Source of the DNA: Candidatus Micrarchaeia archaeon | GTDB taxonomy: Archaea; Micrarchaeota; Micrarchaeia; CAILAH01 | Reading direction: 5' to 3' | Assembly (NCBI GenBank): GCA_038874595.1 | Contig: JAVZCB010000001.1 | Location: 59,609-123,608 of the forward strand | DNA length: 64,000 nucleotides | Notes under the pieces: generated by a model | The model's input: only the letters and a program-made list of their open reading frames with translations | What the model was told of the DNA's origin: nothing | Database searches by the model: none | In this document: piece after piece, positions 1,837 to 55,889 of the stretch | Position numbering within the stretch: position 1 is the first letter of the stretch | Layout of the letters: each line of letters begins with the position of its first letter | Program-made: the position numbers and the translations under genes

Positions 1837-1876
1837 TCAATCATTCAGGACCAAAACTCTGACACACTATCGCAAC

Positions 1877-2999: not shown

Positions 3000-3050
3000 T
3001 GGTGATACTTCTGCACAAATGATTTAAAGTTATGGCACAAAGAAAAAACG

Positions 3051-3563: not shown

Positions 3564-3588
3564 ACATTACCTTGCGGGAAGTTAGCGG

Positions 3589-10554: not shown

Positions 10555-11458
10555 TGCTTCCTTCCCTCTCTTGCTTAGATGCCTTAATTTGGGAAGGATT
10601 CTTTATAATCGTATTTAGCAACGAGAGTATTGATGATATGGTGTACCCAAAAGAAAGCAGTACTGCAACAACACCGCACAGGAGCGCATACATGCGCGCG
10701 CCCATCTTCTTTGCAATCTCACGCATCTTGCGCATCATAGATTTTCTCTGTTGCAGTGTGCCATCTCTCATATTCATTACTTCCTCAACAGTTATGCTCT
10801 CACCCAACTGGTTCAGCGCCTCAATGATTGAATAAAGGACACCAAGGTCTTTCTCCTCAAGCAGCATCCTCTTCAGCTTTTCCCTGCCGAGCATTAATTT
10901 CCTTGAGCCAATAGTGCTTGCTATCCTGGACCTCACCGCAGGGTCCTTGCTGTCAAGCAAGTGCACGATTGTGCTTTCATACTTTGCAGGAGATTTGATT
11001 ACAGCCTCAAGTGCAGCCATTCTTTTCTCCATTGCAATATGCTTATCATCAACCGCCTGGACAAGCTCGCCCATTACAAGTTCTTTCCTTTCAAGAAACG
11101 CAAACACGCCAACAAGCTGTGAGCGTGTCCAAGAATCGCTTTTTCTGAACGCCTCTTTCATTATATGTATACCCTCATCACCTATCAGCGGCATTACCAT
11201 AAGTGCCTCCATTTTGAGTGGCTGGTCACTCTTCGAGATGAGAAGCGTCTTAAAAACTTCCTTCCCCTGCCCTTTGCGGAGCAGGTCCATCCACATCTCT
11301 CCCCTTAAATCACTTGGTGCATTCCTTAGCTCGTTAAGGATATCCCTAACATCAGCTTTCCTTGAGTGCGCCTCCGCACCAAAATCCTTGAGAGTACTTT
11401 GTGCTGTCCTCGAATAACTGGAATTATAGCTGATCCTCTCCTGCATCCTTTGCTCCAC
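10541..11458 (-). CDS. HEAT-repeat protein with C-terminal TM helix
   Basis: Repeated helical units (LLDSKDPAVRSRIASTIG); hydrophobic C-terminal segment. Confidence 0.65.
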   Translation of the reverse strand: MEQRMQERISYNSSYSRTAQSTLKDFGAEAHSRKADVRDILNELRNAPSDLRGEMWMDLLRKGQGKEVFKTLLISKSDQPLKMEALMVMPLIGDEGIHIMKEAFRKSDSWTRSQLVGVFAFLERKELVMGELVQAVDDKHIAMEKRMAALEAVIKSPAKYESTIVHLLDSKDPAVRSRIASTIGSRKLMLGREKLKRMLLEEKDLGVLYSIIEALNQLGESITVEEVMNMRDGTLQQRKSMMRKMREIAKKMGARMYALLCGVVAVLLSFGYTISSILSLLNTIIKNPSQIKASKQEREGSNDYL

Positions 11459-11489
11459 TCCACCGGTATATAGCGTTTTTTAAGAAAAT

Positions 11490-40098: not shown

Positions 40099-40268
40099 TG
40101 GAAAACATCAGCACTTAAGCATAAAAATACTACTTCCTAATGTAAATTTGGCATTCTGTAGTATAAATCTAAGTTGTATTAATTTACGATTTTTTCATAA
40201 GAAAACATTACACTGATTTTTTGTGAGATGGAAAACATCAGCACTTAAGCATAAAAATACTACTTCCT
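40099..40268. repeat. 40-bp perfect direct repeat (40099-40138 and 40229-40268)
   Basis: TGGAAAACATCAGCACTTAAGCATAAAAATACTACTTCCT twice, 130 bp apart. Confidence 0.9.
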
Positions 40269-40314: not shown

Positions 40315-40590
40315 ATGGCAAAAAAATCATCAGATGAAAACGAACGCAAAATCTCCCAAATTGTTGAGTTTATGGATATGCTGATGGGTGATAATACTAT
40401 CCCCCGAAACATCAAGAAAGCAATAAGCGATGCAAAGGATAAGCTGCTCGCACCCGGGGACCCGGTTTTTCGTGCAAGCTCTGCAGTGTATACGCTTGAG
40501 AATGTAAGTGAGGATATAAACCTGCCGATGCACGCACGCACACAAATATGGAACATAGTCAGCACCCTTGAGACGATAAAGGAGAAGTGA
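40315..40590 (+). CDS. UPF0147 family protein
   Basis: D.TIPRNI, ED.NLPMHARTQIWNIVS.LE. Confidence 0.88.
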   Translation: MAKKSSDENERKISQIVEFMDMLMGDNTIPRNIKKAISDAKDKLLAPGDPVFRASSAVYTLENVSEDINLPMHARTQIWNIVSTLETIKEK

Positions 40591-42116
40591 GTGTGATGCT
40601 CCAGAGGTTTGCCGATGAGGGCTTCCTCGTGGAATCGGGTGTTGACCGCCTGCTTGCAGAATGCGGTCTCCAGGCAGATGCAATAATTGAGTTTGCAAAA
40701 CAGCGTGATGAGTTTATAATCTCGCATTCCTTGATTGAGGATTATCTCAGGCAGAAGCATGAGCAGGAGAAAGCCTCTTTGCAAGAGCCTATCGAACCTG
40801 AAACGCAGGCGTGCATTGAGAAAGTTGTTGAGGTGAAGGTTGAGCGCCCAGTTTTCCGTGCACTGGCATCAGAGTATCCATCACGTATTGAGCACATTGC
40901 CAGGTATGATGTGAGCGGCAAGTCCACTTGTGAGGGCACAGTTGATGATTTTGTATCGCTTTTCAAGGATAGGCACAAGAGGATATCTGCACTCTTGCAC
41001 GCACAGCCGTCACAGTATCCAGTGACCACATTAAACGGTGCAAAGAAGGGTGAGAAGTGCAGGTTTATTGGGATGGTGCGCTCAAAAACGGTAACAAAGA
41101 ATGGGCACCTGATAATTGAGATTGAGGATGAGCAGGGTGTGATGAAAGGGTTCATAAACAGCTCAAAGAAGGAGCTGATGGCCCTCTCAGGGCAGGTGCT
41201 TTTGGATGAGGTGCTCGCATTTGACGGTAATTACAAAGACCCTTTCTTCTTTATTGATGCAATTACGTGGCCGGATATCCCGGTAAGCAAACCAAAACGC
41301 CTGATTGAGGAGGACCTTTCAATAGCTTTCTTATCCGATTTGCACGTTGGCAGCAAACTTTTTCTGGAAGACCAGTTTAAGCATATGCTTAACTGGCTGA
41401 AGGGCAACTGCGGGGATGCGCGTGAGCGCGAGATTGCTTCCTCTGTAAAATACCTGTTTATAGCAGGTGATATGGTTGACGGTATAGGGATATACCCCAA
41501 CCAGGAGAAGGAGCTTGCAATACAGGACATTTATGAGCAGTACAATACGTTGTTCAATTATCTTGAGCAGGTCCCGGAATACATTGACATCATAATGATA
41601 CCAGGTAATCACGATGCGGTCAGGAGAGGTGACCCGCAACCGCGTATCCCGGATGAGTTCATTAGGAACAAGCGCTCAAACTATCATTTTGGCTCATCAC
41701 CATCCTGGTTTAAGGTTGAAGGGCTAAACTGCCTGCTTTATCACGGCAATTCGCTTGATTCAATGATTGCAAACATAGCGGGGCTTTCATACAACGAGCC
41801 AGAGAAGGCGCAGGTTGAATACTTGAAAAGGAGGCACTTGTCACCGATATATGGCTCTAACCACATAATCCCAGAGAAGGAGGATTATATGGTGATTGAG
41901 GACGTCCCGGATATTGTACATATGGGGCACGTGCATAAGAACGGTTATGTTGAGTACCGCAACGTGCTGTGTATTAACGCAGGCACGTGGCAGTCGCGTA
42001 CCGAGTACCAGCGTATGCAGGGGCACATACCTACACCTGCAATTCTTCCGATATATAATATGAAACGCGGCTCGATTCGCCAGGTTGATTTCAATGGTGG
42101 TACCGTTGAGTGCTGA
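40587..42116 (+). CDS. polB: DNA polymerase D small subunit DP1
   Basis: OB fold plus SDLHVGS, AGD.VDG.GIYP.Q, PGNHD, HMGHVH. Confidence 0.95.
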   Translation: MSVMLQRFADEGFLVESGVDRLLAECGLQADAIIEFAKQRDEFIISHSLIEDYLRQKHEQEKASLQEPIEPETQACIEKVVEVKVERPVFRALASEYPSRIEHIARYDVSGKSTCEGTVDDFVSLFKDRHKRISALLHAQPSQYPVTTLNGAKKGEKCRFIGMVRSKTVTKNGHLIIEIEDEQGVMKGFINSSKKELMALSGQVLLDEVLAFDGNYKDPFFFIDAITWPDIPVSKPKRLIEEDLSIAFLSDLHVGSKLFLEDQFKHMLNWLKGNCGDAREREIASSVKYLFIAGDMVDGIGIYPNQEKELAIQDIYEQYNTLFNYLEQVPEYIDIIMIPGNHDAVRRGDPQPRIPDEFIRNKRSNYHFGSSPSWFKVEGLNCLLYHGNSLDSMIANIAGLSYNEPEKAQVEYLKRRHLSPIYGSNHIIPEKEDYMVIEDVPDIVHMGHVHKNGYVEYRNVLCINAGTWQSRTEYQRMQGHIPTPAILPIYNMKRGSIRQVDFNGGTVEC

Positions 42117-45100
42117 TAACTCAAGAACACACACAGATAACAACGCACAGCAGCAGGCAACAGCCATTATTCATAATGATATCAAGGCATATTTCAAGCG
42201 TATCGAGGAGGGGGCACAGGAAGCGCTCAGGATTGCAAACGAGGCGCGCAGGAAAGGCTACGATTTCGTTGACCATGTTGAGATAACGCTTGCACCTGAT
42301 GTTGCAGGCCGTGTTGAGGGTATTGTTGGGCCGAAAGGCATTTCTGAGGTTATCAGGGAGCTGGTCGCACAGAAGAAGACGCGCGATGAGGTTGCGTTTG
42401 AGATTGCGCGCCGTATCACCACCAATGAATTTGCGACCGGCCTCAACACTGAGCAGCGGCTCGGGCAGGCAGTACGTACCGGCCTTGCGGTGCTTACCGA
42501 AGGTGTGCTGGTAGCACCTACTGAAGGTATATCCGCAGTTAAGATTGAGAAGAACCCTGACGGCTCAAACTACTTAGCGATTTATTTCTCCGGCCCGATT
42601 AGGTCGGCAGGAGGTACCGCAGCAGCATTGGCTGTCCTGCTGGGTGATTACGTCCGCCGGTTTGCTGATATTGGCGATTTTATACCTACAGAAACAGAAC
42701 TGCTCCGCTATGTTGAGGAAGTGAATTTATATGATGCAAGGTGTGCCAGGCTGCAGTACAAGCCGCCAGATGAGGATATAAAATGGGTATTCAAGAATTG
42801 CAAGGTATGCATTGCAGGTGAGCCTACACACGATATTGAGGTTAGCGTGTACAGGAACCTTGAGCGCATGAAGACCAATAGGGTACGCAGCGGTGTTGCG
42901 CTCGTGAGCTGTGAAGGGATTGCACAGAAAGCGCGTAAAGTCCTCAAATACGCAAAGAAGTACGGGCTTGACTGGGGCTGGCTTGAGAAGCTTGTCAAGG
43001 AGAAAAAGAAAGAGGATAAGGTTGAAATCAAGCCGAACGATACGTTCTTGGAAGGGCTTGTTGCAGGCAGGCCGGTCTTTTCGTACCCATCAGCAAAAGG
43101 CGGGTTTAGGCTAAGGTATGGGCGCACGCGGTTTACAGGTATTGCTGCAAAAGCGATACACCCTGCTACTATGGTGCTGCTTGATTATTTCCCTGCGTTG
43201 GGAACACAGCTTAAGATAGAACGCCCAGGTAAAGGCACGGTAATAACACCGTGCGATACAATAATGGGCCCAATCGTTAGGCTCAAGAATGGTGATGTTG
43301 TATATGTTTCATCCTCAGATGAGGCAAAACTGCTTTATGAAGATGTTGAAAAAATCCTATTTCTAGGCGACATGCTTATATCCTATAATGATTTTTCAAA
43401 AGCGAACCACGTGCTTTTACCATCACCGTTCGTTGAGGAGATATGGGACATGCTCGCTGCAGAAAAGTCAGCAAGCCAGGGTGAGCAAATCGTACGGCCC
43501 AGGACGGCGCGTGAGGCGTTTGATTTATCACGGAAGACATCGCTCCCATTATACCCGGCATACCTATACTTTTGGAGTGATATCTCAAAAGAAGAGCTGT
43601 TGACACTTGTTAACGCAATCACATCTGCTGGCAAAGTTGAGCTTGATTGGTTTGATGTAAAATCGCTTACAATCAATGATATGAGCGCAAAGCCCGTGCT
43701 TGAATCGCTCGGTGTGCCTCACAAGCTTAGGGATGGCGCAATAATAGTTGAAGGTGATCATGCATATTCACTTCTTGCCACACTCGGTATGCTTGGAAGC
43801 AGTTCAAACGCTAAAATATCCAGGGAAGTTATCGATTCTGCTGTTTCAAACGCCAATACTGATGACGTGTGCTCCATACTCACAATAGCATCAGGTGTTG
43901 AGATACGCAGGAAATCCACATATTATATAGGGTCCAGGATGGGCCGGCCTGAGAAGGCAGATGACCGCTCAATGGCAGGTTCTGTCCACGGCCTGTTCCC
44001 GATAGGAACGCTCGGTGGCAAACTCCGTAGTGTCTCAACAGCGATAAAGAGCAATTATGCATCCTCACTTAATGTTGACCTTGTAGAGCTGCACTGCCAC
44101 AAATGCAACGCAGTATCTTTTTATCCTGTATGCATTTCATGCGGTGCGCGCATCGAGTATGATATCTCAGCAGTTAAGCATAGTGTCAGGCCGATTGATT
44201 TCAAGTCGCTTTACGAGCGTGCAGTAAAACGATGCGATTGTTCACCTGAAGGGTTCCGTCTCATCGTGGGGCTTACAAGCAGCACAAAGTTCCCTGAAGC
44301 GCTCGAGAAAGGGCTTCTCCGTGCAAAACACGGCGTTTACGTGTTCAAGGATGGCACGTGCAGGTTTGATTCAACTGACCTGCCGGCAACGCATTTCAGG
44401 CCGCGTGAGATAGGTACCTCAATTGAAAAGCTGCGCGAGCTTGGCTATCTATATGATGCTTCCGGCGCCCCGCTCGAATCCGAGGACCAGGTTGTTGAGC
44501 TGTTACCGCAGGATATAATATTATCAGAGAACTCTGCTGACTTTTTTTTGCGGCTCTCTCATTTCATTGATGACCTGCTCATACACCTATATGGCATGAA
44601 GCCTTTTTACAATGCAGACTCAAAGGAGGACCTTATAGGCCATTTGTTTATCACACTCTCACCGCATACATCTGCAGGTGTGGTAAGCCGCCTCATCGGT
44701 TTTATTAAGGGCCGTGTCGGCATATCACATCCATATGTGATTTGTGCGCGCAGGAGAAATGCGGATGGTGATGAGGATACCGCGATACTTTTGATGGATG
44801 CATTCCTTAATTTCTCAAAGCTATACCTTCCAGAGACACGCGGCTCAACCATGGATGCGCCTATCGTTCTTACAACGGTTGTTGACCCTGCCGAGGTTGA
44901 TGATGAAGTGCATGCAATGGAGGTTGTCAAATCTTATGGGCTCGAATTTTACAAGGCCGCTGAAGAGTACAAGCCGCCAAGCGCAATCAAGCCAGAGCTT
45001 GTTGAGGACAGGCTCGGGAAAGAAAGCGCGTTTTACTCTCTGGGGTATACGCACGAAGTCACGGATATAAATGATTCTCCAGTCCGTTCCGAGTACGTGC

Positions 45101-45507
45101 TATTAAAATCAATGAAGGATAAGCTTGATAAGCAGTTCTCACTATACAGCAGGCTGCGCGCAGTTGATGCAGTCGATGCGGCCACGCGGTTGCTATCATC
45201 GCATTTCATCCCAGACATCTATGGGAACCTACGCTCATTTTCCAGGCAGACGTTCCGCTGTGGCGGCTGCAACAACATTTATAGGAGAGTACCATTATGC
45301 GGTAAATGCGAGAAGTGCGGCGGCAAGCTTCTCCTAACAATCAACAAGGGTGGGATTGAGAAATACATCAAGCTCGCCAAGTATCTCATAACCAAGTACG
45401 ATCTTCCTGAGTATACGATGCAGCGGTTGGAGCGCGTAGAGAAGGAAATCTCATCGATATTTGAGGATGAAAAAAAGAAGCAGTCATCTTTGGCGCAGTT
45501 CTTGTGA
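42085..45507 (+). CDS. polC: DNA polymerase D large subunit DP2
   Basis: GPIRSAGGT, GGFRLRYGR, RRN.DGDED catalytic motif, C-terminal Zn finger and PIP box QSSLAQFL; no intein seen. Confidence 0.97.
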   Translation: MISMVVPLSADNSRTHTDNNAQQQATAIIHNDIKAYFKRIEEGAQEALRIANEARRKGYDFVDHVEITLAPDVAGRVEGIVGPKGISEVIRELVAQKKTRDEVAFEIARRITTNEFATGLNTEQRLGQAVRTGLAVLTEGVLVAPTEGISAVKIEKNPDGSNYLAIYFSGPIRSAGGTAAALAVLLGDYVRRFADIGDFIPTETELLRYVEEVNLYDARCARLQYKPPDEDIKWVFKNCKVCIAGEPTHDIEVSVYRNLERMKTNRVRSGVALVSCEGIAQKARKVLKYAKKYGLDWGWLEKLVKEKKKEDKVEIKPNDTFLEGLVAGRPVFSYPSAKGGFRLRYGRTRFTGIAAKAIHPATMVLLDYFPALGTQLKIERPGKGTVITPCDTIMGPIVRLKNGDVVYVSSSDEAKLLYEDVEKILFLGDMLISYNDFSKANHVLLPSPFVEEIWDMLAAEKSASQGEQIVRPRTAREAFDLSRKTSLPLYPAYLYFWSDISKEELLTLVNAITSAGKVELDWFDVKSLTINDMSAKPVLESLGVPHKLRDGAIIVEGDHAYSLLATLGMLGSSSNAKISREVIDSAVSNANTDDVCSILTIASGVEIRRKSTYYIGSRMGRPEKADDRSMAGSVHGLFPIGTLGGKLRSVSTAIKSNYASSLNVDLVELHCHKCNAVSFYPVCISCGARIEYDISAVKHSVRPIDFKSLYERAVKRCDCSPEGFRLIVGLTSSTKFPEALEKGLLRAKHGVYVFKDGTCRFDSTDLPATHFRPREIGTSIEKLRELGYLYDASGAPLESEDQVVELLPQDIILSENSADFFLRLSHFIDDLLIHLYGMKPFYNADSKEDLIGHLFITLSPHTSAGVVSRLIGFIKGRVGISHPYVICARRRNADGDEDTAILLMDAFLNFSKLYLPETRGSTMDAPIVLTTVVDPAEVDDEVHAMEVVKSYGLEFYKAAEEYKPPSAIKPELVEDRLGKESAFYSLGYTHEVTDINDSPVRSEYVLLKSMKDKLDKQFSLYSRLRAVDAVDAATRLLSSHFIPDIYGNLRSFSRQTFRCGGCNNIYRRVPLCGKCEKCGGKLLLTINKGGIEKYIKLAKYLITKYDLPEYTMQRLERVEKEISSIFEDEKKKQSSLAQFL
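45304..45507 (+). repeat. polC 3' end, copy 1 of direct repeat (with 50711-50914)
   Basis: 204-nt alignment by eye, about 27 mismatches, nearly all synonymous. Confidence 0.9.
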
Positions 45508-45743
45508 ATGAAGATGAGACTATATTTATGTGGTTTTTATATCTGCTCTCAGAATAGTATTTTATCTATGTATATAGTACGCCTTTTCTAATAAATAAGG
45601 TTGAGAAGGAGATACTTGTTTTCTTAATAACTGCTTTTTATAGTATTTTATTGCAACATTATTGTAACAGTTTATGAAAGTAGAAATTAATTAAGGCTGT
45701 AGATATTTGTATTTAATATATTTTCCAGTGATTTATTCTTGGT

Positions 45744-46730
45744 GTGATAATGGATTTTTTTGAAGGAGTTCTTGTTATTATAAGTGCATTAATATTTGCT
45801 GCGTTTTCGGCAGCTGTTGGTTATTATTATGGGGTGCAAACAGAACGCAAACGTAAAGAATATGAGTCAAATTCAGCATTAATTCATATCAATCAGCAGT
45901 TAGCTGAGATTAAGATTAAGTTTGAAGAGATTGAGAAAGCCCGTAAAGATCGTGAGAAATTAGTGTCTGATATGAATGCAGAACGCATTGAATTTATGGA
46001 TATCCTTAGAAAGGACGCAAGTAAAAAGGAAGAAGATAGACTTAAACAAGTTCAAGAAATTATAGATAATATGGGTAAAATAGAAAGAATTCTTGTTGGT
46101 ACTTATTCAAGAGGTAAGTCGGGTGAAGAACTTTTGAAAGAATCACTAAAAGATTTCATAAAAATACGCCTGGTAGAATGTAATGTATCCGTTGGCAATA
46201 ATCTTACTGTCGAATATGGCTGGAAACTTAATGATGGTAAGTATATCCCTATAGATTCCAAATATCCAGATATATTTGGTCAAATTAGGAAATTAGATGA
46301 AACCAACGATGCGAACGCTCGTAAAAAACTTAAGGAAATGATTAAGCGAACTTTAGAAAGAAATATAGATGATATCACAAAATATCAGAATCAAACAAAA
46401 ACTACAGATTACTGTATTCTTTCAGTTCCAGATTCAATAATTGAGCTTTTACCAGAAATATGTCATTATGGTTTATCAAAAAGAGTTTTTGTCGTAGGAT
46501 ACTCAAATACAGCTATAATTGCGTTCCTTATCGCACAACAGTATAATAAAAGTTTGGAAGAACGTGATGTAAAGGAATTAAGCCAGATTATCGAGAGTCT
46601 CTCTATGATATTGGATAAGATTTCTGAGAACGTTAGTACTATCGAACGTGGGATTAAAATGGTCAAAAATGCCAGTGAAGATATTCAAGCTGAGGTGGTA
46701 AAGGGCAAACAAAAGATTAAGTTGTATTAA
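45744..46730 (+). CDS. rmuC: Membrane-anchored RmuC-family nuclease
   Basis: N-terminal TM, coiled coil, RGKSGE..L, PIDSKYP, TTDYCIL. Confidence 0.8.
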   Translation: MIMDFFEGVLVIISALIFAAFSAAVGYYYGVQTERKRKEYESNSALIHINQQLAEIKIKFEEIEKARKDREKLVSDMNAERIEFMDILRKDASKKEEDRLKQVQEIIDNMGKIERILVGTYSRGKSGEELLKESLKDFIKIRLVECNVSVGNNLTVEYGWKLNDGKYIPIDSKYPDIFGQIRKLDETNDANARKKLKEMIKRTLERNIDDITKYQNQTKTTDYCILSVPDSIIELLPEICHYGLSKRVFVVGYSNTAIIAFLIAQQYNKSLEERDVKELSQIIESLSMILDKISENVSTIERGIKMVKNASEDIQAEVVKGKQKIKLY

Positions 46731-46836
46731 TGTTTTGGTTATTGAAAACTCTATACTTAAACTGGCTATTTCGGAAACCGAAAACTTATTATTTAGTTAA
46801 TCTCTAAGTAAATTCATCTCTAAATGGGAGGATGAT

Positions 46837-47349
46837 TTGTTGGGTCCTGGTGTGAGGTTAAGTATACTTCAAAAGAAGTCCGGAGAATGGTTTGATATGG
46901 AATCACATAGTGAAATAAGAGGTAATATTGTTGCAGTAAACGTCAGCGATTCCTGTTCAGGTGATTGGACTTTAAACTTAAAAATTTCTGAAGATTTGAG
47001 AAAATGTGAAGTTGCGGCTGTAACTTCTTCAGGAACAACAATTCTTCATGACCAAGTCAAGCATAAAACGATGGTTTTGAAGGCGAAAGATGAGAATGAA
47101 TTTTATAGCCTATTGGGATTGGCATACATACAAGAAGATCGCCTTAGGATGAAAAGAGTGAGTTCTAGGACTAAAGTTCCGGTAGAAATATCTAATCGAT
47201 TTGAGCTTGTGACAATGAGTAGCCTGGGCAAATTCGGACCAATGCGCGACAAGATTGCAGCAATAGTAAATAAAGAAGATTATGAGAGAATCGCATTGTT
47301 ATTTTATTTACAGAAAATTGCCCCAATTTTGGACAAATTTAAAATTTAG
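46837..47349 (+). CDS. Hypothetical protein
   Basis: 170 aa, TTG start after GGAGGATGA SD. Confidence 0.6.
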   Translation: MLGPGVRLSILQKKSGEWFDMESHSEIRGNIVAVNVSDSCSGDWTLNLKISEDLRKCEVAAVTSSGTTILHDQVKHKTMVLKAKDENEFYSLLGLAYIQEDRLRMKRVSSRTKVPVEISNRFELVTMSSLGKFGPMRDKIAAIVNKEDYERIALLFYLQKIAPILDKFKI

Positions 47350-47362
47350 AGGAGGTGAAATA

Positions 47363-47437
47363 ATGGCACGAAGAGTATCTTTCACAAGAAGCAATGGGAG
47401 CAGAGTTTGCTTCTATTCCACACGTAAGAGGCCTTGA
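47363..47437 (+). CDS. 24-aa basic micropeptide MARRVSFTRSNGSRVCFYSTRKRP
   Basis: Perfect SD GGAGGTGA 5 nt upstream; not in the ORF track. Confidence 0.5.
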   Translation: MARRVSFTRSNGSRVCFYSTRKRP

Positions 47438-47482
47438 ACTGAGAAGAACGTCTTAATAATGGAACCTAGCAATTGTCACATA

Positions 47483-48232
47483 TTATTTCTTTTGGTTTTG
47501 GAAAAACATTTTATTAAGAAAAGGTGATAGTAAGACTGGATCAAAAACTCTTTTCATTATGACTCTTGAATCAAGTTTTGTTTTCTTAGATGCAATCTCC
47601 ATTATTGAAAAAATTTTTAAAAGGGTATCCAACCCCTCTTTTTCACAAAGGCTTTTAGCTTTGTTTAAAATTACAATATGTTGTTCTTTTGGTAAGTCAA
47701 ACCTTAGTAGGTCAAACATTGAAATCTTAAGTGTTTCAAAATCTTTATTATTGAATTTTTCTCTAAATTTGTAAACTTCGTCATCTTTTAATTTATTTAC
47801 ATAAGTATAAATTTTGTTTGAAAGTTGATTTGATTCGATTTTTCTTATCTTCGATTTCTTTGATAAAATTATTTTAGGTATTTGATTGTTAAGTATAGCG
47901 TATTTTAATTGATTTTTTTCATTTGCATTAAGTTTTTTGGAGTTTGGTGCAAGATAAGATAGTACAGGCAGTAATTTTGAAATAGGTAGTCTAATTTTTG
48001 AAATATCCTCTTTTGTGAATGCACTTCTTAACCAATAACCTCTAAGAAGTAGCGCTCTACTCACATAAATTTTTTTATTTTGAATATTCCAATACGTTTT
48101 TTGTGAAACCATTTTATGCTCAACTAAGAAATCCCCCAGTATCCATAATTTTTGTATTTTTTTATGAGGATCAATCTCTCTTTTGTATTCACTAGTCATT
48201 TTTTGAAGGGTAATTAAGATATAATCATTCAT
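47483..48232 (-). CDS. Hypothetical basic protein (weak resemblance to DUF1016 N-terminal helices)
   Basis: ATG 48232 overlaps the GHKL stop; LWILGDFL...SRALLLRGYW. Confidence 0.6.
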   Translation of the reverse strand: MNDYILITLQKMTSEYKREIDPHKKIQKLWILGDFLVEHKMVSQKTYWNIQNKKIYVSRALLLRGYWLRSAFTKEDISKIRLPISKLLPVLSYLAPNSKKLNANEKNQLKYAILNNQIPKIILSKKSKIRKIESNQLSNKIYTYVNKLKDDEVYKFREKFNNKDFETLKISMFDLLRFDLPKEQHIVILNKAKSLCEKEGLDTLLKIFSIMEIASKKTKLDSRVIMKRVFDPVLLSPFLNKMFFQNQKK

Positions 48233-50048
48233 CTTCTTCAACCTCTGCAACTTTCTTTTTAATTTCTTCACGTTTGTCCCAGAGCATTTTCTCAACTTTT
48301 GCAATTGTTTCAACTATCTTAACGTTTTTGTCCTTGCTATCTACTTCAATACCTTTCCTCTTGTAATATAGGTCAAGAAACCACGGTGTGGTAACGAATG
48401 CCAAATATGAGATAAATCTTTTTGTTATTTTCTTTTTCTTAGGAGTATTTAATCTCTCTAAATAAAAAGGATGTATTGAATTAATAACAATTATTTTATC
48501 TCCCCACATATCTGAAGGAGGCATTTTTTCACCAAGTGGGTGAAAATCAAATTGTAAGCCTCGTTGCTTTATTTGTTTGTAATTTATTTTGTTACCATCA
48601 TCAGATGAAGGTACTTCCCCCTTACTTTCTCCGATATTTGATCCTATCTGACCAGAGGTAGCATTTTCATTTATTTCACGTGATAAACCAGTTCTTATTT
48701 TACCTGTGCCTTTGTAGTCTTTGTTACCGAGTATAAAACCAGCACCTATGTCAGCGATTCCACTAAGCAAACCTTTGTCTGATTTTATTTCACGTGTCCT
48801 TGCAAAGATATCGGTATCCATCTCCTTCGAAACATCACTAAAAATATCTGATAGAAGATCCGACAATGATTTTTCGTGTTCTTTTATTTTATTTTTGTCA
48901 ATCTCATCAAATTTTTGTTTTACAACAGCAGTGATTTTTGCAAGTTCTGAATAGATGTAATCACGTTCATCGGAGGGAGTAATATCTGACCTTGTAATGT
49001 CTATTTCAATTTTTTTCGTAATATCAAACCGTCCAATAATTTCTGGTCTTTCCCATACTGTATTGTCAATGTTATTCTCGTTACAATAATCCTTAAAACT
49101 CTCAAGTCTTGGTATCTCCCTTATGGTTGTACCTAATCTGCTGATACGTGGTAAGTATTCTTTAATCACGGGATTTTGATTAAGATATGTCGGTTCAATA
49201 ATTTTGAAATAATACGTGGCAATACTTTTGTTGTTTTTGTCTTTAATTTCACCAGAAATGACCTCCCCAGGTATAGTGTTATAATCCAAAGGAGATATTT
49301 TGATTATTTGTGGTTTGCATACACTGCGCTTTTTGGTCCATCTATAAATATATATCTCAACAAGATTGCTACGTATAAACTCTTCGAAATGAATTGGGAT
49401 TGTGGTAATTAATTTTTCAGAGATGTAATCAAAAGAACTCCTTCTCTGTTCCTTTTTTGTAATTCCCTCAACAAATACATCTGTCCCATGAGTTCTTGTT
49501 ATCCTATAATATTGGAATGCTCGTAAATCGAAAATGGAACCGAATACAGGCATCTGAACTTTCTCTTTTTCTTCATTTAGGTTCCCATAAATTTCATTTC
49601 TTTCAAAGGATAGTAAATTTGTCTTTGGAGATTCATCTATACTTGTTGAATAAATTTTGATTGTGTCAAACCACCCTCTGAAAGATTGAATACCATATCC
49701 AAATTGACCAGGTGTCCAAGCGTAAGCTTTTTTCTTTGAATTGAAAGTTTTTGTAGGTAATTCGCTAAGTTCTTTTCTGGTCATCCCAGCACAATTATCT
49801 TGTATGATAAATCTCTTCCTTGTGGTATCAATATGAACAAGAATTTTTCTTGGCAATATTTCTTTACCGTATTTTTTTTCCAGCTCAATCGCACTATCAA
49901 TGGAGTTCTGTATATATTCATAAAGAACTGCTTCAGGTTGGTGGTACAGTGCAGCGATTCTTTGAATGATCTCCATTATTTGTTCATCTTTTGGATTATC
50001 TAGAATTCTTAACTTCATATTTTCGGCCTCATAAATTAAATTGTTCAA
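48225..50048 (-). CDS. GHKL (MORC/Hsp90-like) ATPase
   Basis: EYIQNSIDS (N box), DNCAGM (G1), GQFGYG (G2), HGT (G3), C-terminal INSIHPFY. Confidence 0.85.
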   Translation of the reverse strand: MNNLIYEAENMKLRILDNPKDEQIMEIIQRIAALYHQPEAVLYEYIQNSIDSAIELEKKYGKEILPRKILVHIDTTRKRFIIQDNCAGMTRKELSELPTKTFNSKKKAYAWTPGQFGYGIQSFRGWFDTIKIYSTSIDESPKTNLLSFERNEIYGNLNEEKEKVQMPVFGSIFDLRAFQYYRITRTHGTDVFVEGITKKEQRRSSFDYISEKLITTIPIHFEEFIRSNLVEIYIYRWTKKRSVCKPQIIKISPLDYNTIPGEVISGEIKDKNNKSIATYYFKIIEPTYLNQNPVIKEYLPRISRLGTTIREIPRLESFKDYCNENNIDNTVWERPEIIGRFDITKKIEIDITRSDITPSDERDYIYSELAKITAVVKQKFDEIDKNKIKEHEKSLSDLLSDIFSDVSKEMDTDIFARTREIKSDKGLLSGIADIGAGFILGNKDYKGTGKIRTGLSREINENATSGQIGSNIGESKGEVPSSDDGNKINYKQIKQRGLQFDFHPLGEKMPPSDMWGDKIIVINSIHPFYLERLNTPKKKKITKRFISYLAFVTTPWFLDLYYKRKGIEVDSKDKNVKIVETIAKVEKMLWDKREEIKKKVAEVEEDE

Positions 50049-50262
50049 GTGTGGATTTTTTGAAAAGTGATTTTACACGTTTTGTTTCCTTTTCAATTGC
50101 AGTAAATATTACATTCACTTCTTCATCAGAATACTCATAAGTAGAGATATTTGAACAATTTTCTAATAATTTGAGAGTATATAAAGTTTTCCTAGTTCTA
50201 GCCTCAGTGATACGTCTGAATTTCTCATTTTTTGTCTCTCCCGCAACAGATATTTTTACCAT
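50029..50262 (-). CDS. Small helical protein leading the GHKL operon
   Basis: KFRRITEARTRKTL..LKLLENCSN..YEYSDEEV..IF.AIEKE; ATG at 50262. Confidence 0.7.
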   Translation of the reverse strand: MVKISVAGETKNEKFRRITEARTRKTLYTLKLLENCSNISTYEYSDEEVNVIFTAIEKETKRVKSLFKKSTLEQFNL

Positions 50263-50589
50263 ATAATCATCTAATACTATTAGTATTGATAAAAGCAAAT
50301 ATAAAAACTTTTTCATTTTATGTTGTATATATTGCGGCTCTTAAATATCCAAGCGTTCCGTTGTATGAGGCATCTAAATTTTCATACCCGCTCTTAAGTT
50401 ATGATTGGAGGTGGTCAAGGTGATGCAAAAATACATATCTATCTTAAATTTTAGGCTCAGATGATTATCTTTAATCTCTGGACATTCTATTGTAAGTAAT
50501 AATTTCAATGATAAGATATCTCCGACTATTGAAAAAGAGTGATCTTTACTCAGCTTCATTAAGTTATTTTTATTCTTTATTTATACCTA

Positions 50590-50670
50590 CTACTGGAAGA
50601 ACCACTGCTTTACTGCTTCTGTTGTGATGCAATAGAAAAACAAAATTTCGAATACGATGGCGATGCCAAG
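50590..50670 (-). pseudogene. Diverged 3' fragment of mgtA
   Basis: Encodes LGIAIVFEILFFYCITTEAVKQWFFQ*, versus LDIAIVFGIVFLYCITTEIVKQWFFQ at 53149-53226. Confidence 0.85.
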
Positions 50671-50710
50671 ACATATTTTGGTGTATCTTTTCCCTTACGG
50701 CAAATGTAAG

Positions 50711-50914
50711 AAATGCGAGAAGTGCGGCGGCAAGCTTCTCTTAACAATCAACAAGGGCGGGATTGAGAAATACATCAAGCTGGCCAAATACCTGATTACA
50801 AAATATGGACTTCCAGAATATACGATGCAAAGGTTAGAGAGAGTTGAGAAGGAAATCTCATCGATATTTGAGGATGAAAAAAAGAAGCAGTCCTCACTGG
50901 CACAGTTCCTCTAA
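50711..50914 (+). pseudogene. Duplicated 3' end of polC (DP2 C-terminal 67 aa)
   Basis: Translation identical to the DP2 C-terminus except D->G; lies within ORF 50657-50914. Confidence 0.9.
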
Positions 50915-50959
50915 TACTATTTTAAGCTTAGAGTACCTAATTATAGATGAGCTGATTTT

Positions 50960-51526
50960 ATGGGAAAAAGGAGTGGAAAGAAGGGTAATGAATACTCTGA
51001 TGCCGTATTCGTGGGTGTCGGAGGCTGCGGGATCAATACGGTCTCAAGGCTGTCAGAGCTGGGAATAACCGGCTCAAAGTTCGTACTTGTGAATAAGAAG
51101 GGCGATAACCATCCCTCATCAGTGAAGGGCGCGTCCGAATTGATCGTTGACATGCCGTTATCAACGCGCATGCCGCTCCCAGACAAGGAACTTGGCGCTT
51201 TCAAGAGCCAGCTCTCCGAGGAGCTCAAAGGCGCCGGGAAGGCATACATATTCGCAGGGCTTGGCGGCTCAACAGGTACCTCCCTTGCGCCGATTGCCGC
51301 GCAAACAGCCAGGGAAATGGGCGTGGAGCCGGTCATAATAGTCACTCTTCCGTTTGAGGTTGAGAGGAATAGGTGTGAGATTGCCAGGAATACGCTCCCC
51401 GCGCTCAGGGATATCCCCGGCCAGCTAATAGTCCGCGACAACAACGATTTGGTGAAGGAGTGTCCTAACCTATCGATGAAAGAGGCATTCAAGAAATTCG
51501 ATGAGAAGCTCATAGGACAGCTCTGA
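50960..51526 (+). CDS. FtsZ/tubulin-like protein, GTPase domain only
   Basis: GVGGCGIN, AGLGGSTGT, VTLPFEVE, DNNDL, EAFKKFD; ends before the T7 loop. Confidence 0.8.
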   Translation: MGKRSGKKGNEYSDAVFVGVGGCGINTVSRLSELGITGSKFVLVNKKGDNHPSSVKGASELIVDMPLSTRMPLPDKELGAFKSQLSEELKGAGKAYIFAGLGGSTGTSLAPIAAQTAREMGVEPVIIVTLPFEVERNRCEIARNTLPALRDIPGQLIVRDNNDLVKECPNLSMKEAFKKFDEKLIGQL

Positions 51527-51673
51527 TTAATTTCCTTTTATTTTAGGGTTTCTATGATATTTGTTTATGCAGTTATGTGTGGCACAAAAGACAGACAATT
51601 AAGTAATCTTAAAATCCAAGGTAAGGCGTTTTGTAATATTTTATATATTTATATCTTCACTAATGATAGGATC

Positions 51674-52285
51674 ATGGATAAAAAAACTGTCTTTGAAATT
51701 GTTAAAAAATTACAATTTGACACTAAAAAAATTATTTACAAAAAAGGTAATACCTCTGTATATATTATAAGACCATCTAAATTATCTAAGCGATTTAATG
51801 AGTATGATGTGCATAAGAATTTCCAGATATTCCTTAGGATTGGTGAACGTGAATTTAGGCCAAATCATCTTAGGGTGATGATTGATCTTAACCTAAGGAT
51901 TCGCAGCCGCCCTGAACTGAAGAAAAAGCTACTCCTAGCGTTTGACAATATATTCTATGGAGCAGATCCAGAAAAGGAACTGAAAGCTCTGTCCCGACAG
52001 AAGTTTGAGCATTTTCTAAATGATTTGATAGTTATTGGTACACTTGCCCAATTATTTGTGATTGAGCAGGAATATTGTTATCACAGAAAAAGTAATTTTG
52101 ATCCACCAACTCTCTTTTTTCAGGGCTGGGTTAGGGAATTTCTAGATAATCCTAAGGAAATAGATAATTTGTGCATGAGCGTTTGTAAAGGCCTACCTCC
52201 ATTACAAAAATATGTATCTCGTGAAAATAAGAAAAGCAAAAACTATTCAAAGAAACTTAAGCCCCTTTGGTATCTTAAATCTTAA
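51674..52285 (+). CDS. Hypothetical protein, putative restriction endonuclease
   Basis: Convergent with the MTase with overlapping stops; no clear PD-(D/E)xK or HNH motif. Confidence 0.5.
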   Translation: MDKKTVFEIVKKLQFDTKKIIYKKGNTSVYIIRPSKLSKRFNEYDVHKNFQIFLRIGEREFRPNHLRVMIDLNLRIRSRPELKKKLLLAFDNIFYGADPEKELKALSRQKFEHFLNDLIVIGTLAQLFVIEQEYCYHRKSNFDPPTLFFQGWVREFLDNPKEIDNLCMSVCKGLPPLQKYVSRENKKSKNYSKKLKPLWYLKS

Positions 52286-53055
52286 TTCTCGGACCATGCT
52301 TCAACAAGTTGCTTCTGAACTGCACCTAGGCGTTTTTTGGCAATTTCAATGTATTTTTCTTCTTTGTCTATACCTATTGAATTCCTATTAAGCATCTTTG
52401 CCGCTACCGATGTTGTTCCTGAGCCAACAAATGGATCTAGGACAGTATCACCTTCATTTGAAGTTGCAAGTATGATCCTCTTCAATAACTCTAGGGGTTT
52501 TTGGGTTGGATGAATACCATATTTTTTTTCACTCTTTGGTGTTAAAGGTATTTCCCACACATTACGCATTTGCTTGCCTTTATTTATAGATTTCATCAGT
52601 TCATAATTAAATACCCATTTCTTGTTGCTATGATTCTTTGTTGCCCAGATAAGATGTTCTGTGGATTCAGTAAACATGCGACACGTTATGTTTGGCTGGG
52701 CATTTGGCTTGAACCATACGATTGAATTGTTAATCTTTGCCTCATATATATGCTGAAGGATAAAACCAATCTGATAAATGTTATGGAACGAGCCACATAC
52801 CCAAAAGCTCCCACCATGCTTCAAAACTCTCATACATTCCTTTATCCACTTCTGATTGAACTTAAAGAATTCGTCTTTCTCAAATATGTCCCATTCTTCT
52901 GTAAGCGTTATGTGTTTGCTATATGCCCATCCCAGACCCTTCTTTTTCGCTAATCCATAAGGCGGGTCAGCAAATATCAGGTCAACTGATTCATCAGGCA
53001 TTTTCTTTAGCTCCTCAATTGCATCACCAATAATCAGCTGGTGAGTGGTCTTCAT
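52282..53055 (-). CDS. Beta-class N6-adenine/N4-cytosine DNA methyltransferase (DpnA/CcrM-like)
   Basis: DPPY precedes HPTQKP and DPFVGSGTT; GKQMRNVW. Confidence 0.92.
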   Translation of the reverse strand: MKTTHQLIIGDAIEELKKMPDESVDLIFADPPYGLAKKKGLGWAYSKHITLTEEWDIFEKDEFFKFNQKWIKECMRVLKHGGSFWVCGSFHNIYQIGFILQHIYEAKINNSIVWFKPNAQPNITCRMFTESTEHLIWATKNHSNKKWVFNYELMKSINKGKQMRNVWEIPLTPKSEKKYGIHPTQKPLELLKRIILATSNEGDTVLDPFVGSGTTSVAAKMLNRNSIGIDKEEKYIEIAKKRLGAVQKQLVEAWSEN

Positions 53056-53118
53056 AAATTCATTTCACGTAGATTGTTTAAAAACATTATTACAGAGATA
53101 TTCCAGTTATTTTAAATA

Positions 53119-55716
53119 CTAATAGCTATTCTCAAACTCCTTATAATGCTGGAAGAACCACTGCTTTACTATTTCTGTTGTGATGCAGTACAGGAACACG
53201 ATCCCGAACACGATTGCAATATCAAGCGCGGATGGAACTGCAAAATTGAAATATTGGCCCACCGCGGGAAGTGAGACCACCGCAACCGCAGCGGCTGTGA
53301 TAAACAGCGAAGATGTGATTAGCAGCCTGCTTGGTATGCTTGCAAAGAACGGCCCGCGCGTTCTCACTATGAATGTTATGAATATCTCGGATAGCAGCGA
53401 TTCAAGGAACCAGAGCGTTCGCAGCAGTGCCGCCCCTACGCCTAACACGTAATAGAATACTAATATGGTGAGCAGGTCAAACAGTGAGCTTAACACACCG
53501 AAGAATACCATGAAATGCGAGATCATCTTGACATTCCATTTCTTAGGTGTCTTGATAGATTTCTCATCCACGTTATCTGTTGATATTGCGAGCATTGGGA
53601 AATCGCTGAGGAAGTTGTTCAATAATATCTGTACCGGAAGAAGCGGTATAAATGGAAGAAACAGCGGTGATATAATTACAGTGCCCATATTACCGTAATT
53701 TGCGCTTATTGTGTTGAGTATATATTTTGTAATATTAGCGAACGTTTTCCTGCCCTCACGCACACCATCTGCGATTACCCTGAGGCTCTTATGTGTCAGG
53801 ACAACATCCGCTGCCTCTTTTGCAACGTCCTGTGCGGTATTTACTGAAATCCCCACATCAGCAAGCCGGAGAGCTGGTGCATCATTAATACCATCACCCA
53901 TAAACCCGACGATGTGGCCGTTTGCACGGACAGCTTCAAGGATTCTTACTTTTTGTGCAGGTGTAACACGCGCAAACACATTGTATTTCTCAACAACCTC
54001 GTGTAATTTTTTATCATCTATATTATCAATCTCCTTGCCGGTGATTACGCGTTTTCCCTTAATCTCGAGCTTTACATCCTTACATAATCTCTTTGTAACA
54101 TCCGGGTCATCACCGGTTAAAAGCATCAGTGATATGTCCAATTCCTTAAACTGCTTGATTGATTCAATAGCAGTTCTCTTAGGCTCGCTCTTAAAGAGCA
54201 TAAACCCTTCCAACGTTAGCTCGCGCTCATCTGCAACAGAGTAATCATTCTTTTGTGGGACGGCTCGTGAAGCCACTGCGAGTACAGAGTATCCTTCCTT
54301 TGCAAACCCCCGCACAATCTCATTTATCTTTTTCCTAACACTATCAATCTCAGTTTTCTTGCCGTTGATGTTGGCATAAGCACATACAGAGAGCACAGAT
54401 TCTGCCTCACCTTTTGTTATAAGCACAATCTCCTGTCGTGATTTTCGCTTGCTTGTTTTCTGTGATATTTTAAACACTTCGCTCATCCGTTTCCTTTCAT
54501 AATCGAACGCAATATCATCAATGTTTGCATACCCATCCGGCTTTTGGATATGATGAAGGTTCGCATATCTGATTATTGCAGTATCATATACATTTCCAGA
54601 AATGTGTTTGCCGTGCGTATGCGCATGACTGCACAGCAACCCATATTTCAGGACACCCCAATCATCATTACCTAACGGTGCAACAGTTTTCTCAAGCATA
54701 AGTTCCGGCTCGGTAAGCGTACCGGTCTTATCCATTAGCAGCACGTCCATGAGCCCAACATCTTCGATTGTGGCGAGCTTTTTAACCACGACTTTCTTCT
54801 CAGCCATCTTAAGTGCACCTGCAGACAACGTGATGGTAGTGATTGCAGGAAGCATCTCAGGTGCAATGCCAACAGCCACTGCAAGTGCAAACAATAAAGA
54901 TTCAAGGATACCCCTGCCAAGATATGAGTTTACAGCAAACACAAATATTGTCATTATTACAATGACCTGGAGTGTGAACGTACTGAACTTCCTGATATTA
55001 ACCTGGAAATCAGATTCAGGTATCTTTGCTGAGTATAGTGTAGCGGTCCTGCCAAAATGCGTAGATTGACCCGTGGCAACCACTATACCTTTTGCAGTAC
55101 CGTAAGTTACAGTGGTCCCCATAAGTGCATAATTCTTAAGCTCATATGCTGCCGGCCGTGCAAGCTTAATAGGCGCCGTACTTTTCTCAACCTCGCGCGA
55201 CTCACCAGTTATTGCAGATTCATTCGTACGGAAATCTTCACATCTGACCAAACGCATATCCGCAGGCACAACGTTCCCGATCTCAAGCAGGACCACATCA
55301 CCGGGTACAAGGTCCTCCGCATTGATTTCTTCCTGCCGTCCATCACGTATTACAACAGCCTTATTTGAAAGATACCTCTTGAGCTGGCGTAGCGAGTTTT
55401 CTGAACGGTACTCTTGATAGAACCCGAGCAGTGCACTTAACAGCAGTATCGCTATAATCGTGAGCCCCTCTGTTGTATCCCCAATGTATAAAGCTATGAC
55501 TGAGGCAAAAATTAGTATGAATATGAAAGCGTTATTAAACTGCGAAAGCAGTATCTCAAGCCATGAACGCCTGTCCCTCTCTGGGATTGAGTTCCTTCCG
55601 TAAACCATTCTCCTGCGTGCAACTTCATGTGCGCTTAGCCCTTTCTCAGGATCAACCTTAAGTGCAGCTGCAACTTGATAGCTTTCCAATCGCCAATATT
55701 CACTATTGTTATTCAC
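53119..55716 (-). CDS. mgtA: Mg2+-translocating P-type ATPase
   Basis: TGES, PEMLP, DKTGTLT, GDGINDAPAL, ANYGNM, QILLNN; GTG start at 55716. Confidence 0.9.
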   Translation of the reverse strand: MNNNSEYWRLESYQVAAALKVDPEKGLSAHEVARRRMVYGRNSIPERDRRSWLEILLSQFNNAFIFILIFASVIALYIGDTTEGLTIIAILLLSALLGFYQEYRSENSLRQLKRYLSNKAVVIRDGRQEEINAEDLVPGDVVLLEIGNVVPADMRLVRCEDFRTNESAITGESREVEKSTAPIKLARPAAYELKNYALMGTTVTYGTAKGIVVATGQSTHFGRTATLYSAKIPESDFQVNIRKFSTFTLQVIVIMTIFVFAVNSYLGRGILESLLFALAVAVGIAPEMLPAITTITLSAGALKMAEKKVVVKKLATIEDVGLMDVLLMDKTGTLTEPELMLEKTVAPLGNDDWGVLKYGLLCSHAHTHGKHISGNVYDTAIIRYANLHHIQKPDGYANIDDIAFDYERKRMSEVFKISQKTSKRKSRQEIVLITKGEAESVLSVCAYANINGKKTEIDSVRKKINEIVRGFAKEGYSVLAVASRAVPQKNDYSVADERELTLEGFMLFKSEPKRTAIESIKQFKELDISLMLLTGDDPDVTKRLCKDVKLEIKGKRVITGKEIDNIDDKKLHEVVEKYNVFARVTPAQKVRILEAVRANGHIVGFMGDGINDAPALRLADVGISVNTAQDVAKEAADVVLTHKSLRVIADGVREGRKTFANITKYILNTISANYGNMGTVIISPLFLPFIPLLPVQILLNNFLSDFPMLAISTDNVDEKSIKTPKKWNVKMISHFMVFFGVLSSLFDLLTILVFYYVLGVGAALLRTLWFLESLLSEIFITFIVRTRGPFFASIPSRLLITSSLFITAAAVAVVSLPAVGQYFNFAVPSALDIAIVFGIVFLYCITTEIVKQWFFQHYKEFENSY

Positions 55717-55889
55717 AGGACCACATAAATACTTCTGCCAAATACTTAAAAAGGCATTATGTTGTACATGCACGCGCAGGATGAGGGTGCCTGGTAGCAC
55801 GGTGGTAGCAGAATTTTAAATCCGGCAAGTGCGCAACTGGAAACCTTCATACAGAGCGCTTTTATAACTCAGGTTGTAGAATATCTACC

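Follow-up and report, generated by a model that had tools for sequence, protein, structure and literature searches.

The interval between the convergent genes polC and mgtA of an uncultured Candidatus Micrarchaeia archaeon holds two blocks of accessory genes, and between these blocks lie, back to back, a second 3′ end of mgtA and a second 3′ end of polC. The locus raises the question of how a second cargo could be added to such an interval together with the ends of both neighbouring genes. It was analyzed in a window of 64,000 nucleotides (nt), that is, the whole stretch of DNA from position 59,609 to 123,608 on the forward strand of contig JAVZCB010000001.1 (GenBank assembly GCA_038874595.1), and all coordinates given here refer to this window. 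The explanation we favor, with a probability of about 60%, is that a relative's version of the interval was added beside the resident one by an import that was anchored by homology and needed no integrase. It would have proceeded by homology-facilitated illegitimate recombination (HFIR) or through a circular intermediate with one crossover, followed by patchy gene conversion.

The gene referred to as polC is predicted from its domains to encode DP2, the large subunit of the archaeal family-D DNA polymerase (PolD), and not bacterial PolC. The intact gene on the left flank (42085..45507, forward strand) matches the Pfam families PolC_DP2_N, PolC_DP2_central and PolC_DP2_cat with E-values of 9e-103 to 1.7e-118. 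On the right flank, the intact mgtA (53119..55800, reverse strand) was assigned to the Mg2+-translocating P-type ATPases by NCBIfam TIGR01524 (696.5 bits, cut-off 610.75). The repeat search returned two pairs, namely 45304-45501 and 50711-50908 (198 nt, 88%) as well as 50588-50670 and 53144-53226 (83 nt, 80%). Extended to the stop codons, the first pair consists of the 3′ end of the intact polC (45304..45507, forward strand) and a displaced end, in the following the polC remnant (50711..50914, forward strand), which terminates with a stop codon of its own. The second pair consists of the mgtA remnant (50588..50670, reverse strand) and the segment 53144..53226 (reverse strand) of the intact mgtA, with 66 of 83 nt identical. 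Both remnants are separated by a filler of 40 nt (50671..50710).

The resulting order is polC, cassette A (45508-50587), mgtA remnant, filler, polC remnant, cassette B (50915-53118) and mgtA, and the cargo between the intact polC and the intact mgtA amounts to 7.6 kb. To the left of each cargo block lies a polC 3′ end, and to the right an mgtA 3′ end. This is the layout that an earlier sequence-only reading of the window had described, and it was confirmed by the repeat search and by alignment. In a search of the whole genome (0.92 Mb), the junction stretch matched only itself and the two gene ends (E 2e-67 and 1.6e-14). The host genome is a metagenome-assembled genome (MAG) of 0.92 Mb in 7 contigs with a completeness of 93.5%, and the contig that carries the window has a length of 225 kb.

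The polC remnant was compared with the end of the intact gene. Aligned to the stop codons, the copies are identical at 177 of 204 nt. One of the 27 differences is found in the stop codons (TGA/TAA), and the other 26 are located in coding sequence and change a single residue in 67 codons, which is a D in the intact gene and a G in the remnant. The G is also the state in two other species of the genus (G001 and G002). The homology of the remnant ends exactly at the stop codon. According to the method of Nei and Gojobori, the proportion of synonymous differences (pS) is 0.54 and that of nonsynonymous differences (pN) is 0.022. The binomial probability of at most one replacement among 26 changes is approximately 1e-16, which disfavors the decay of a duplicate in place, since decay would give mostly replacements. 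Judged by this pattern, the remnant carries the signature of coding selection and would have evolved within a working gene. The count of about 27 of 204 nt with one changed residue, given in the sequence-only reading, was reproduced by the alignment, and the comparison of pS and pN that it had called for revealed a divergence of the coding type.

The differences are not evenly distributed (permutation p ~0.0005). In codons 1-23 and 46-60, two of 38 codons differ between the copies, whereas the counts for these codons against the two congeneric species are 18 of 38 (G001) and 16 of 38 (G002), with Fisher p-values of 5e-5 and 3e-4, respectively. Codons 24-45 and 61-68 diverge as much as between species (17 of 30 and 18 of 30), with differences at 22 of 30. 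The longest exact identity in the polC repeats comprises 47 nt (45440-45486). Thus, of the claim that the copy had been under coding selection in another lineage, the coding signature held, and a simple origin from a source with a divergence of 13% did not, because the remnant is a mosaic of near-identical and species-level blocks.

The mgtA remnant is patchy as well, with a block of 45 nt that contains two differences and an adjoining block of 38 nt that contains 15. Its frame is open over 26-27 codons with five replacements and is closed by a stop codon 9 codons ahead of that of the intact gene, past which all similarity to the intact gene ceases. The remnant and the mgtA of this genome have the derived motif KQWFFQ in common; all five relatives have KHWFFS. 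For the filler of 40 nt, no similarity above that of shuffled controls to the continuation of polC or mgtA was found, and neither the filler nor the intergenic flanks had a match elsewhere in the genome or in the intervals of the relatives. The mosaic of the remnants may be read in either of two ways. A foreign end of species-level divergence may have been homogenized in part at a later time, or near-identical copies may have received foreign patches later. Both readings imply DNA of another lineage and repeated homologous exchange within a few hundred bases.

An open reading frame (ORF) of 85 amino acids (aa) extends across the junction (50657-50914, forward strand). It starts with an ATG inside the mgtA remnant, continues in frame through the filler into the polC remnant, and keeps a cysteine-rich motif as well as the C-terminal sequence QSSLAQFL. 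The latter resembles a PCNA-interacting protein (PIP) box. If expressed, the ORF would yield a free-standing C-terminal peptide of DP2.

The junction was also searched for in public sequencing runs, using Logan contigs (word size 31, with depth given as one figure per contig). The runs that contain the stretch are labeled as hot-springs metagenomes. Run X1 is the probable source, with 0.98 of the sampled words, and run X2, from a different study, contains 0.56 of them. In X1, a contig of 321 nt matches 50420-50740 without differences, running from the last part of cassette A across the mgtA remnant and the filler to 30 nt inside the polC remnant. It extends past the first boundary by far more than the 31-letter rule demands and reaches across the second boundary by 30 letters, which is one below this rule. 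In X2, a contig spanning approximately 50618-50733, as calculated from the distances to the contig ends, contains four substitutions and two single-base indels between 50649 and 50701. A diverged form of the junction therefore exists in an independent sample. The sequence-only reading had asked whether reads span 50670-50711; at the level of contigs, both of these do. A chimeric assembly of a strain with only cassette A and a strain with only cassette B does not explain the junction, because in the former the end of cassette A would abut the intact mgtA.

The contig depths in X1 were 9.25 for polC, 5.5 and 6.6 for cassette A, 8.21 for the junction, 8.15 for cassette B and 9.2 for mgtA. In X2, the pieces of cassette A had a depth of approximately 3 compared to 10-12 for the flanks. 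The lower depth of cassette A could be due to GC bias (GC content 0.31 vs. 0.47) or to a subpopulation that does not carry it, and a per-contig depth is not usable as a copy number. One further contig of X2 joins 44927 to 45315 within polC, skipping 387 nt with a side of 35 letters, and the two sides share only a word of 7 nt. This joint is probably derived from another organism or is an artefact of the assembly graph.

For the identification of recombinases, the ORFs of the island were scanned at E <= 1. No integrase, resolvase or transposase domain and no match to a phage family was found in them, so that the interval is free of recognizable mobile elements and mobility proteins. The search was extended to the whole genome, which at a completeness of 93.5% contains no match to PF00589 or PF00239, not even one of the XerA type, while 14 of 14 and 12 of 14 control genomes were positive, respectively. 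The recombinase RadA is present (318 bits). The earlier claim that no integrase lies in the island was thus confirmed and applies to the genome as well.

Next, the interval was compared in relatives, for which eight further family genomes were used together with 80 metagenome loci found via the DP2 C-terminus. Five loci contain convergent polC and mgtA genes on one contig, and all five differ from the window. The interval comprises 309 bp without an ORF of at least 70 aa in G002, and 968 bp with a gene for endonuclease V in G007. In G008 it has a length of 4743 bp and encodes endonuclease V, LemA, a GIDE-like protein and an unknown protein of 853 aa. The two metagenome loci carry one ORF with a HAD-type DVDNT motif, read by eye (L038, 1316 bp), and the same kind of HAD-like ORF (L039, 835 bp). 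The contig of G001 stops approximately 107 nt past polC, and in G006 polC and mgtA are located on separate contigs. The cargo proteins of the window had no match in the loci of the relatives or in the metagenome loci, and the cargo DNA, compared to five relatives, matched only at the polC end. With the same flanking core genes enclosing different cargo in five of five loci, the polC-mgtA interval is, by this comparison of sequences, a variable hotspot of gene exchange. The hotspot claim of the sequence-only reading was thereby upheld, the interval being empty or occupied by other genes in all five related loci.

Two observations concern the flanking genes in the relatives. In G003, a genome of another genus of the family (L035, G003:C1 2069-2139), polC is followed directly by an HD-OB gene, which in the window lies beyond mgtA, and mgtA itself may be an older insertion next to polC. 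The DP2 gene of the sister species G001 (L006, G001:C56 ~868-1406) contains approximately 537 nt of additional sequence; the match before it extends to residue 893, and the match after it resumes at residue 885. This extra stretch may represent an intein or an insertion.

In the model that we favor, the whole interval of a relative, including the ends of both flanking genes, would have been added beside the resident version without replacing it. For this, the RadA machinery of the cell would carry out a single homologous exchange within a flanking gene, and a single illegitimate joint would be needed in addition. The latter would correspond to the stretch of mgtA remnant, filler and polC remnant. 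The anatomy of the locus is expected from this model, in which a homologous exchange combined with an illegitimate joint leaves an intact gene followed by acquired DNA and, behind it, the end of the far flanking gene joined to the displaced end of the near one. Two routes are conceivable. By HFIR, a linear fragment consisting of the donor's polC, cassette A and the first 83 nt of the donor's mgtA end would be anchored by a crossover anywhere in polC, and its far end would be joined illegitimately into the resident polC approximately 200-240 nt before the stop codon. The gene end would thereby be duplicated, and the resident end would be pushed downstream together with cassette B. The mirror version, anchored in mgtA, would be equally possible. 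Alternatively, a circularized segment of the donor could have been inserted by a single crossover of the Campbell type. By both routes the intact genes would stay functional and one set of gene ends would land in the middle of the island. Afterwards, short gene-conversion tracts between the direct repeats would homogenize parts of them, and each slot would go on to change its contents on its own, as when the restriction-modification-like pair of cassette B described below is gained or lost. Integrase-free additive import through the homology of gene ends had been put forward in the sequence-only reading. The anatomy and the lack of an integrase agree with it; the mechanism itself, with the order of events, the cassette that came second, the route and the gene conversion, is what we infer from this anatomy and was not observed.

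Several results weigh against the import. An interval with cassette A or cassette B alone was absent from the eight family genomes, the 80 metagenome loci and nine loci of genome contigs. The latter originate from a scan of genome contigs for the cassette A gene A4, which gave no locus with the single sequence and nine loci with an alignment as the query, none of them between polC and mgtA. As no donor arrangement was found, the import of a relative's interval is argued from the remnants, and the two cassettes, which the sequence-only reading had taken as allelic, are not demonstrated alleles, even though its expectation of other cargos in relatives was borne out by the five loci. A second polC end was detected in none of the 80 metagenome loci and none of the seven loci of the relatives, and these relatives have no second mgtA end. 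Within the genome itself, 91 repeat pairs were obtained at E <= 1e-8 without a second case of a displaced gene end, and the five other dispersed or adjacent pairs that were inspected are paralogues or intergenic repeats. Either the process is rare or the locus reflects a one-off accident. At the joint, no microhomology could be assigned, the filler having no identifiable source. The near-identical blocks of the remnants are compatible with copies that started as a duplication in situ. Finally, the X1 contigs break at the identical block of 47 nt (45440-45486), so that the linkage of the intact polC with cassette A, and not with cassette B, is given by the MAG contig.

One alternative is a tandem duplication in situ. 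It would have extended from approximately 240 nt before the polC stop codon to 83 nt before the mgtA stop codon, and later exchanges would have replaced the cargo of one slot and imported divergent patches. It needs just one illegitimate joint, the copies of polC show two differences in 38 codons, compared to 16-18 for other species of the genus, and the mgtA remnant contains the derived KQWFFQ of this very genome instead of the KHWFFS of the relatives. However, the divergent blocks are of species level and purely synonymous (22 of 30 codons), so that foreign DNA is required anyway. Moreover, the exchange of the cargo in the first slot needs a crossover inside the mgtA remnant of 83 nt or one that replaces it, and nothing is left of a duplicated cargo, as the intergenic flanks of cassettes A and B have no similarity. 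We therefore regard the duplication as unlikely. Somewhat less plausible in our view is a site-specific element, comprising cassette A and the junction, that targeted the 3′ end of polC in the manner of prophage e14 in icd, its integrase having been lost or acting in trans and the mgtA piece stemming from an earlier imprecise excision. In line with this, the block of low GC content is enclosed by direct repeats of the 3′ end of the target gene, one at each end of the presumed element, the longest exact identity in these repeats is 47 nt, and the intact gene is functional with a displaced 3′ pseudogene at the far end, as described for icd and icdC (PMC13626634). But no tyrosine or serine recombinase is encoded in the island, and thus none within the element as in e14, or in the assembled genome. 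The island has no match to transposases or phage families, and searches of 2.9 million viral contigs yielded no relative of A4 or of the RmuC-like gene A1. In addition, the A5-A4-A3 module of cassette A is found elsewhere without these ends, and the mirror-image end of the opposite flanking gene is not expected for an attachment site.

The break of the X1 contigs bears on a further alternative, a mis-resolved assembly. The chromosome would consist of polC, cassette B and mgtA, and cassette A with the junction would be a separate circle of 5.4 kb or a minority form that was threaded in through the 47-nt block. A swap of paths at 45440-45486 gives exactly a chromosome with cassette B alone plus such a circle, it is at this block that the Logan contigs of X1 (word size 31) are interrupted, and in X2 cassette A is found on short separate contigs only, while polC, the cassette B gene B1 and mgtA are located on longer ones. 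On the other hand, ordinary reads are longer than 47 nt, as are the larger word sizes used by MAG assemblers, and the block is traversed by the 225-kb contig. A circle of these genes would have no recognizable replication gene. The junction of the gene ends exists regardless and needs the same recombinational origin. Among the explanations considered, this one is given the longest odds, and the additive import remains the preferred account.

The additive import has a possible consequence. The pair of gene ends could act as a heritable divider that turns a hotspot with one slot into an array, in which the slots exchange the intervals of relatives by double crossover. As each slot has a polC 3′ end and an mgtA 3′ end as its borders, any relative's version could be captured or swapped in it. 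Such an array, in an archaeon devoid of integrases, would resemble an integron that is free of a recombinase and made from the ends of housekeeping genes. A hint in this direction comes from X2, in which the flanking genes are approximately 99.5-99.9% identical to the window and the junction contig contains six differences in approximately 116 nt. A contig on the tail of the polC remnant (50883-50902) differs at seven of 20 nt; one of these differences replaces K by R, and the other six are synonymous. It represents a third allele of this gene end and is apparently connected to the B1 side. With cassette A on short contigs and B2-B3 not on the main contigs of this run, X2 gives a pattern as if the divider and both slots exchanged independently of the flanks. 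The divider is proposed here tentatively and we consider it doubtful.

Cassette A differs from its surroundings in composition. The GC content is 0.29-0.35 in cassette A, 0.35-0.37 in B2 and B3, 0.49 in B1 and 0.43-0.52 in the flanks. The first gene, A1 (45744..46730, forward strand), encodes an RmuC-like protein of 328 aa (Pfam RmuC, E 6.6e-17; GC content 0.32) that is rare in the class, as it occurs in two of 151 genomes including this one. It also gave the sole PHROGs match among the cargo, a weak one of coiled-coil-like character. A2 (46837..47349, forward strand) is an ORF of 170 aa without a Pfam, NCBIfam, PADLOC or PHROGs match, and A6 (50374..50559, reverse strand), taken from the ORF list, has a length of 61 aa, matches no family and may not be a gene.

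A3, A4 and A5 form a module on the reverse strand. Its first gene is A5 (50029..50316, 95 aa), followed by A4 (48225..50048, 607 aa), a GHKL ATPase (HATPase_c_3, PF13589, E 3.7e-07), and by A3 (47483..48313, 276 aa), the partner of the module, for which neither a family match nor a usable lead in the structure atlas was obtained. Besides itself, A4 has four homologues in 5.8 billion proteins, which are 39-53% identical and one of which is named Candidatus Micrarchaeota. Two other DPANN MAGs have kept A5, A4 and A3 as a unit, and a third one has part of it. In the first (L118, module at 9743-12506) the identities of A5, A4 and A3 are 53%, 50% and 47%, and in the second (L119, module at 1422-3963) those of A4 and A3 are 44% and 40%. 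In the third (L120), A5 and A4 were found with 39% and 26%. Homologues of A5 are located directly upstream of those of A4 (L118 and L120), and homologues of A3, with 250-276 aa, directly downstream of them (L118 and L119). The neighbors of the module in these MAGs encode Dam-type methyltransferases, an AAA_5 ATPase, a DndB-like protein, an EVE/PD-(D/E)XK nuclease, a DUF3800 protein and a transposase. By association with this neighborhood, which resembles a defense island, A5-A4-A3 is a candidate new defense system. PADLOC gave no match for eight of the nine cargo proteins, including those of the module.

In cassette B, B1 (50960..51526, forward strand) encodes a protein of 188 aa with an FtsZ/tubulin-like GTPase domain (Pfam Tubulin, E 1.3e-16) and has a GC content similar to that of the host (0.49). 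Its score against TIGR00065 is 86 bits, which is below the cut-off of 295. A remnant of the host ftsZ was considered and rejected, as B1 is just 30-35% identical to the three other FtsZ-like genes of the genome.

The second part of cassette B consists of a convergent gene pair. B3 (52282..53055, reverse strand) encodes a CcrM-like N6/N4 DNA methyltransferase (Pfam N6_N4_Mtase, PF01555, E 4.4e-60; PADLOC MTase_II, E 5.9e-89) and would supply the DNA methyltransferase of a type II restriction-modification system. Its partner B2 (51554..52285, forward strand; probable true start at 51674, 203 aa) matches no known family. It has 730 homologues with an identity of approximately 70% across DPANN archaea and other lineages, and in two of three close loci these adjoin methyltransferases of the B3 type. 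The AlphaFold model of B2 has a pLDDT (predicted local distance difference test) value of 89.6 and gave no clear fold match (best Foldseek E 0.32, best VIA Z 5.7). B2 may be a restriction enzyme, possibly of an undescribed fold, and together with B3 it makes up a restriction-modification-like pair. A contig of X2 joins 51551 directly to 53120 with a side of 68 letters, so that exactly B2-B3 is absent and B1 lies beside the mgtA stop codon. The pair is therefore a unit that was separately gained or lost.

The sequence-only reading had called the two blocks defense cassettes. This description is partly supported, by the restriction-modification-like pair and by the GHKL module, a candidate through its defense-island contexts; it does not extend to the whole cargo, since PADLOC recognizes the methyltransferase only and B1 is FtsZ-like with a host-like GC content.

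Upstream of the locus, the gene for the small PolD subunit DP1 (40587-42116) lies directly before the DP2 gene. Its closest named homologues are those of Candidatus Micrarchaeota and Micrarchaeia MAGs, with identities of 83% and 65-66%. Further upstream, a perfect direct repeat of 40 nt was detected (40099-40138 and 40229-40268, 130 nt apart).

Hotspots between core genes that contain no mobile elements and are diversified by recombination in the flanking genes are established (Oliveira et al., 2017; PMC5635113). For the core defense hotspots of Pseudomonas, the question of how they were built is described as open by the authors (Johnson et al., 2023; PMC10250203). Such hotspots resemble the locus studied here in the constant pair of core genes, the varied and partly defense-related cargo, the lack of an integrase or transposase and the proposed recombination in the flanks. 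They differ in that their double crossover replaces the cargo without leaving a scar, whereas here the import would have been additive and the ends of both flanking genes are left back to back, and in that the host here is a DPANN archaeon with a genome of 0.9 Mb. A double crossover in the flanks explains how cargo is replaced and not how it accumulates. The locus may therefore be seen as a rare fossil of an additive event, which constrains the mechanism to one homologous exchange and one illegitimate joint. It extends such scars to DPANN archaea and to minimal genomes. As no site-specific recombinase could be detected in this minimal genome, genes may be gained mainly through the recombination machinery of the cell itself. 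This is a single case, by which the field is not changed.

Displaced 3′ ends are classic at rhs loci, at loci of contact-dependent inhibition (CDI) and of type VI secretion systems (T6SS), and at icd with prophage e14. HFIR was proposed for the displacement in the T6SS effector-immunity arrays of Vibrio cholerae (Kirchberger et al., 2017; PMC5361080), and a circular intermediate with one crossover for the rhs tips (Jackson et al., 2009; PMC2935791). The arrays show an intact gene, acquired genes and then a displaced 3′ end of the gene itself that diverged under coding constraint elsewhere, and an intact gene, acquired DNA and a displaced own 3′ end are likewise found here. However, the cargo of the arrays consists of variable toxin tips with immunity genes, which are lacking in the present locus. 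Here, the displaced ends belong to the conserved PolD DP2 and MgtA, the cargo is unrelated to them, and the ends of both flanks are kept.

In the case of e14 in icd of E. coli K-12 (PMC13626634, citing Hill et al., 1989), the copy on the side of the element completes the gene, and the original 3′ end is left as the pseudogene icdC with mostly silent differences, which is similar to the situation of polC. Unlike the present locus, in which no site-specific recombination is detectable and a piece of the opposite flank lies at the joint, e14 has a site-specific recombination of its own. HFIR in transformable bacteria and in conjugation (PMC3240628; PMC5361080) likewise combines one homologous anchor with one illegitimate joint and no dedicated recombinase. 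It is known experimentally only from bacteria, whereas here the process is deduced from a scar in an uncultured archaeon, with a filler of 40 nt and no identified microhomology. In keyword searches of open-access text, which cannot prove absence, no description of a two-sided scar at a core-gene hotspot was found. Compared to the known systems, the particular features of this locus are the ends of two housekeeping genes placed back to back, the mosaic structure of the remnants, a DPANN host without a detectable integrase, and a diverged form of the junction in a second hot-spring data set.

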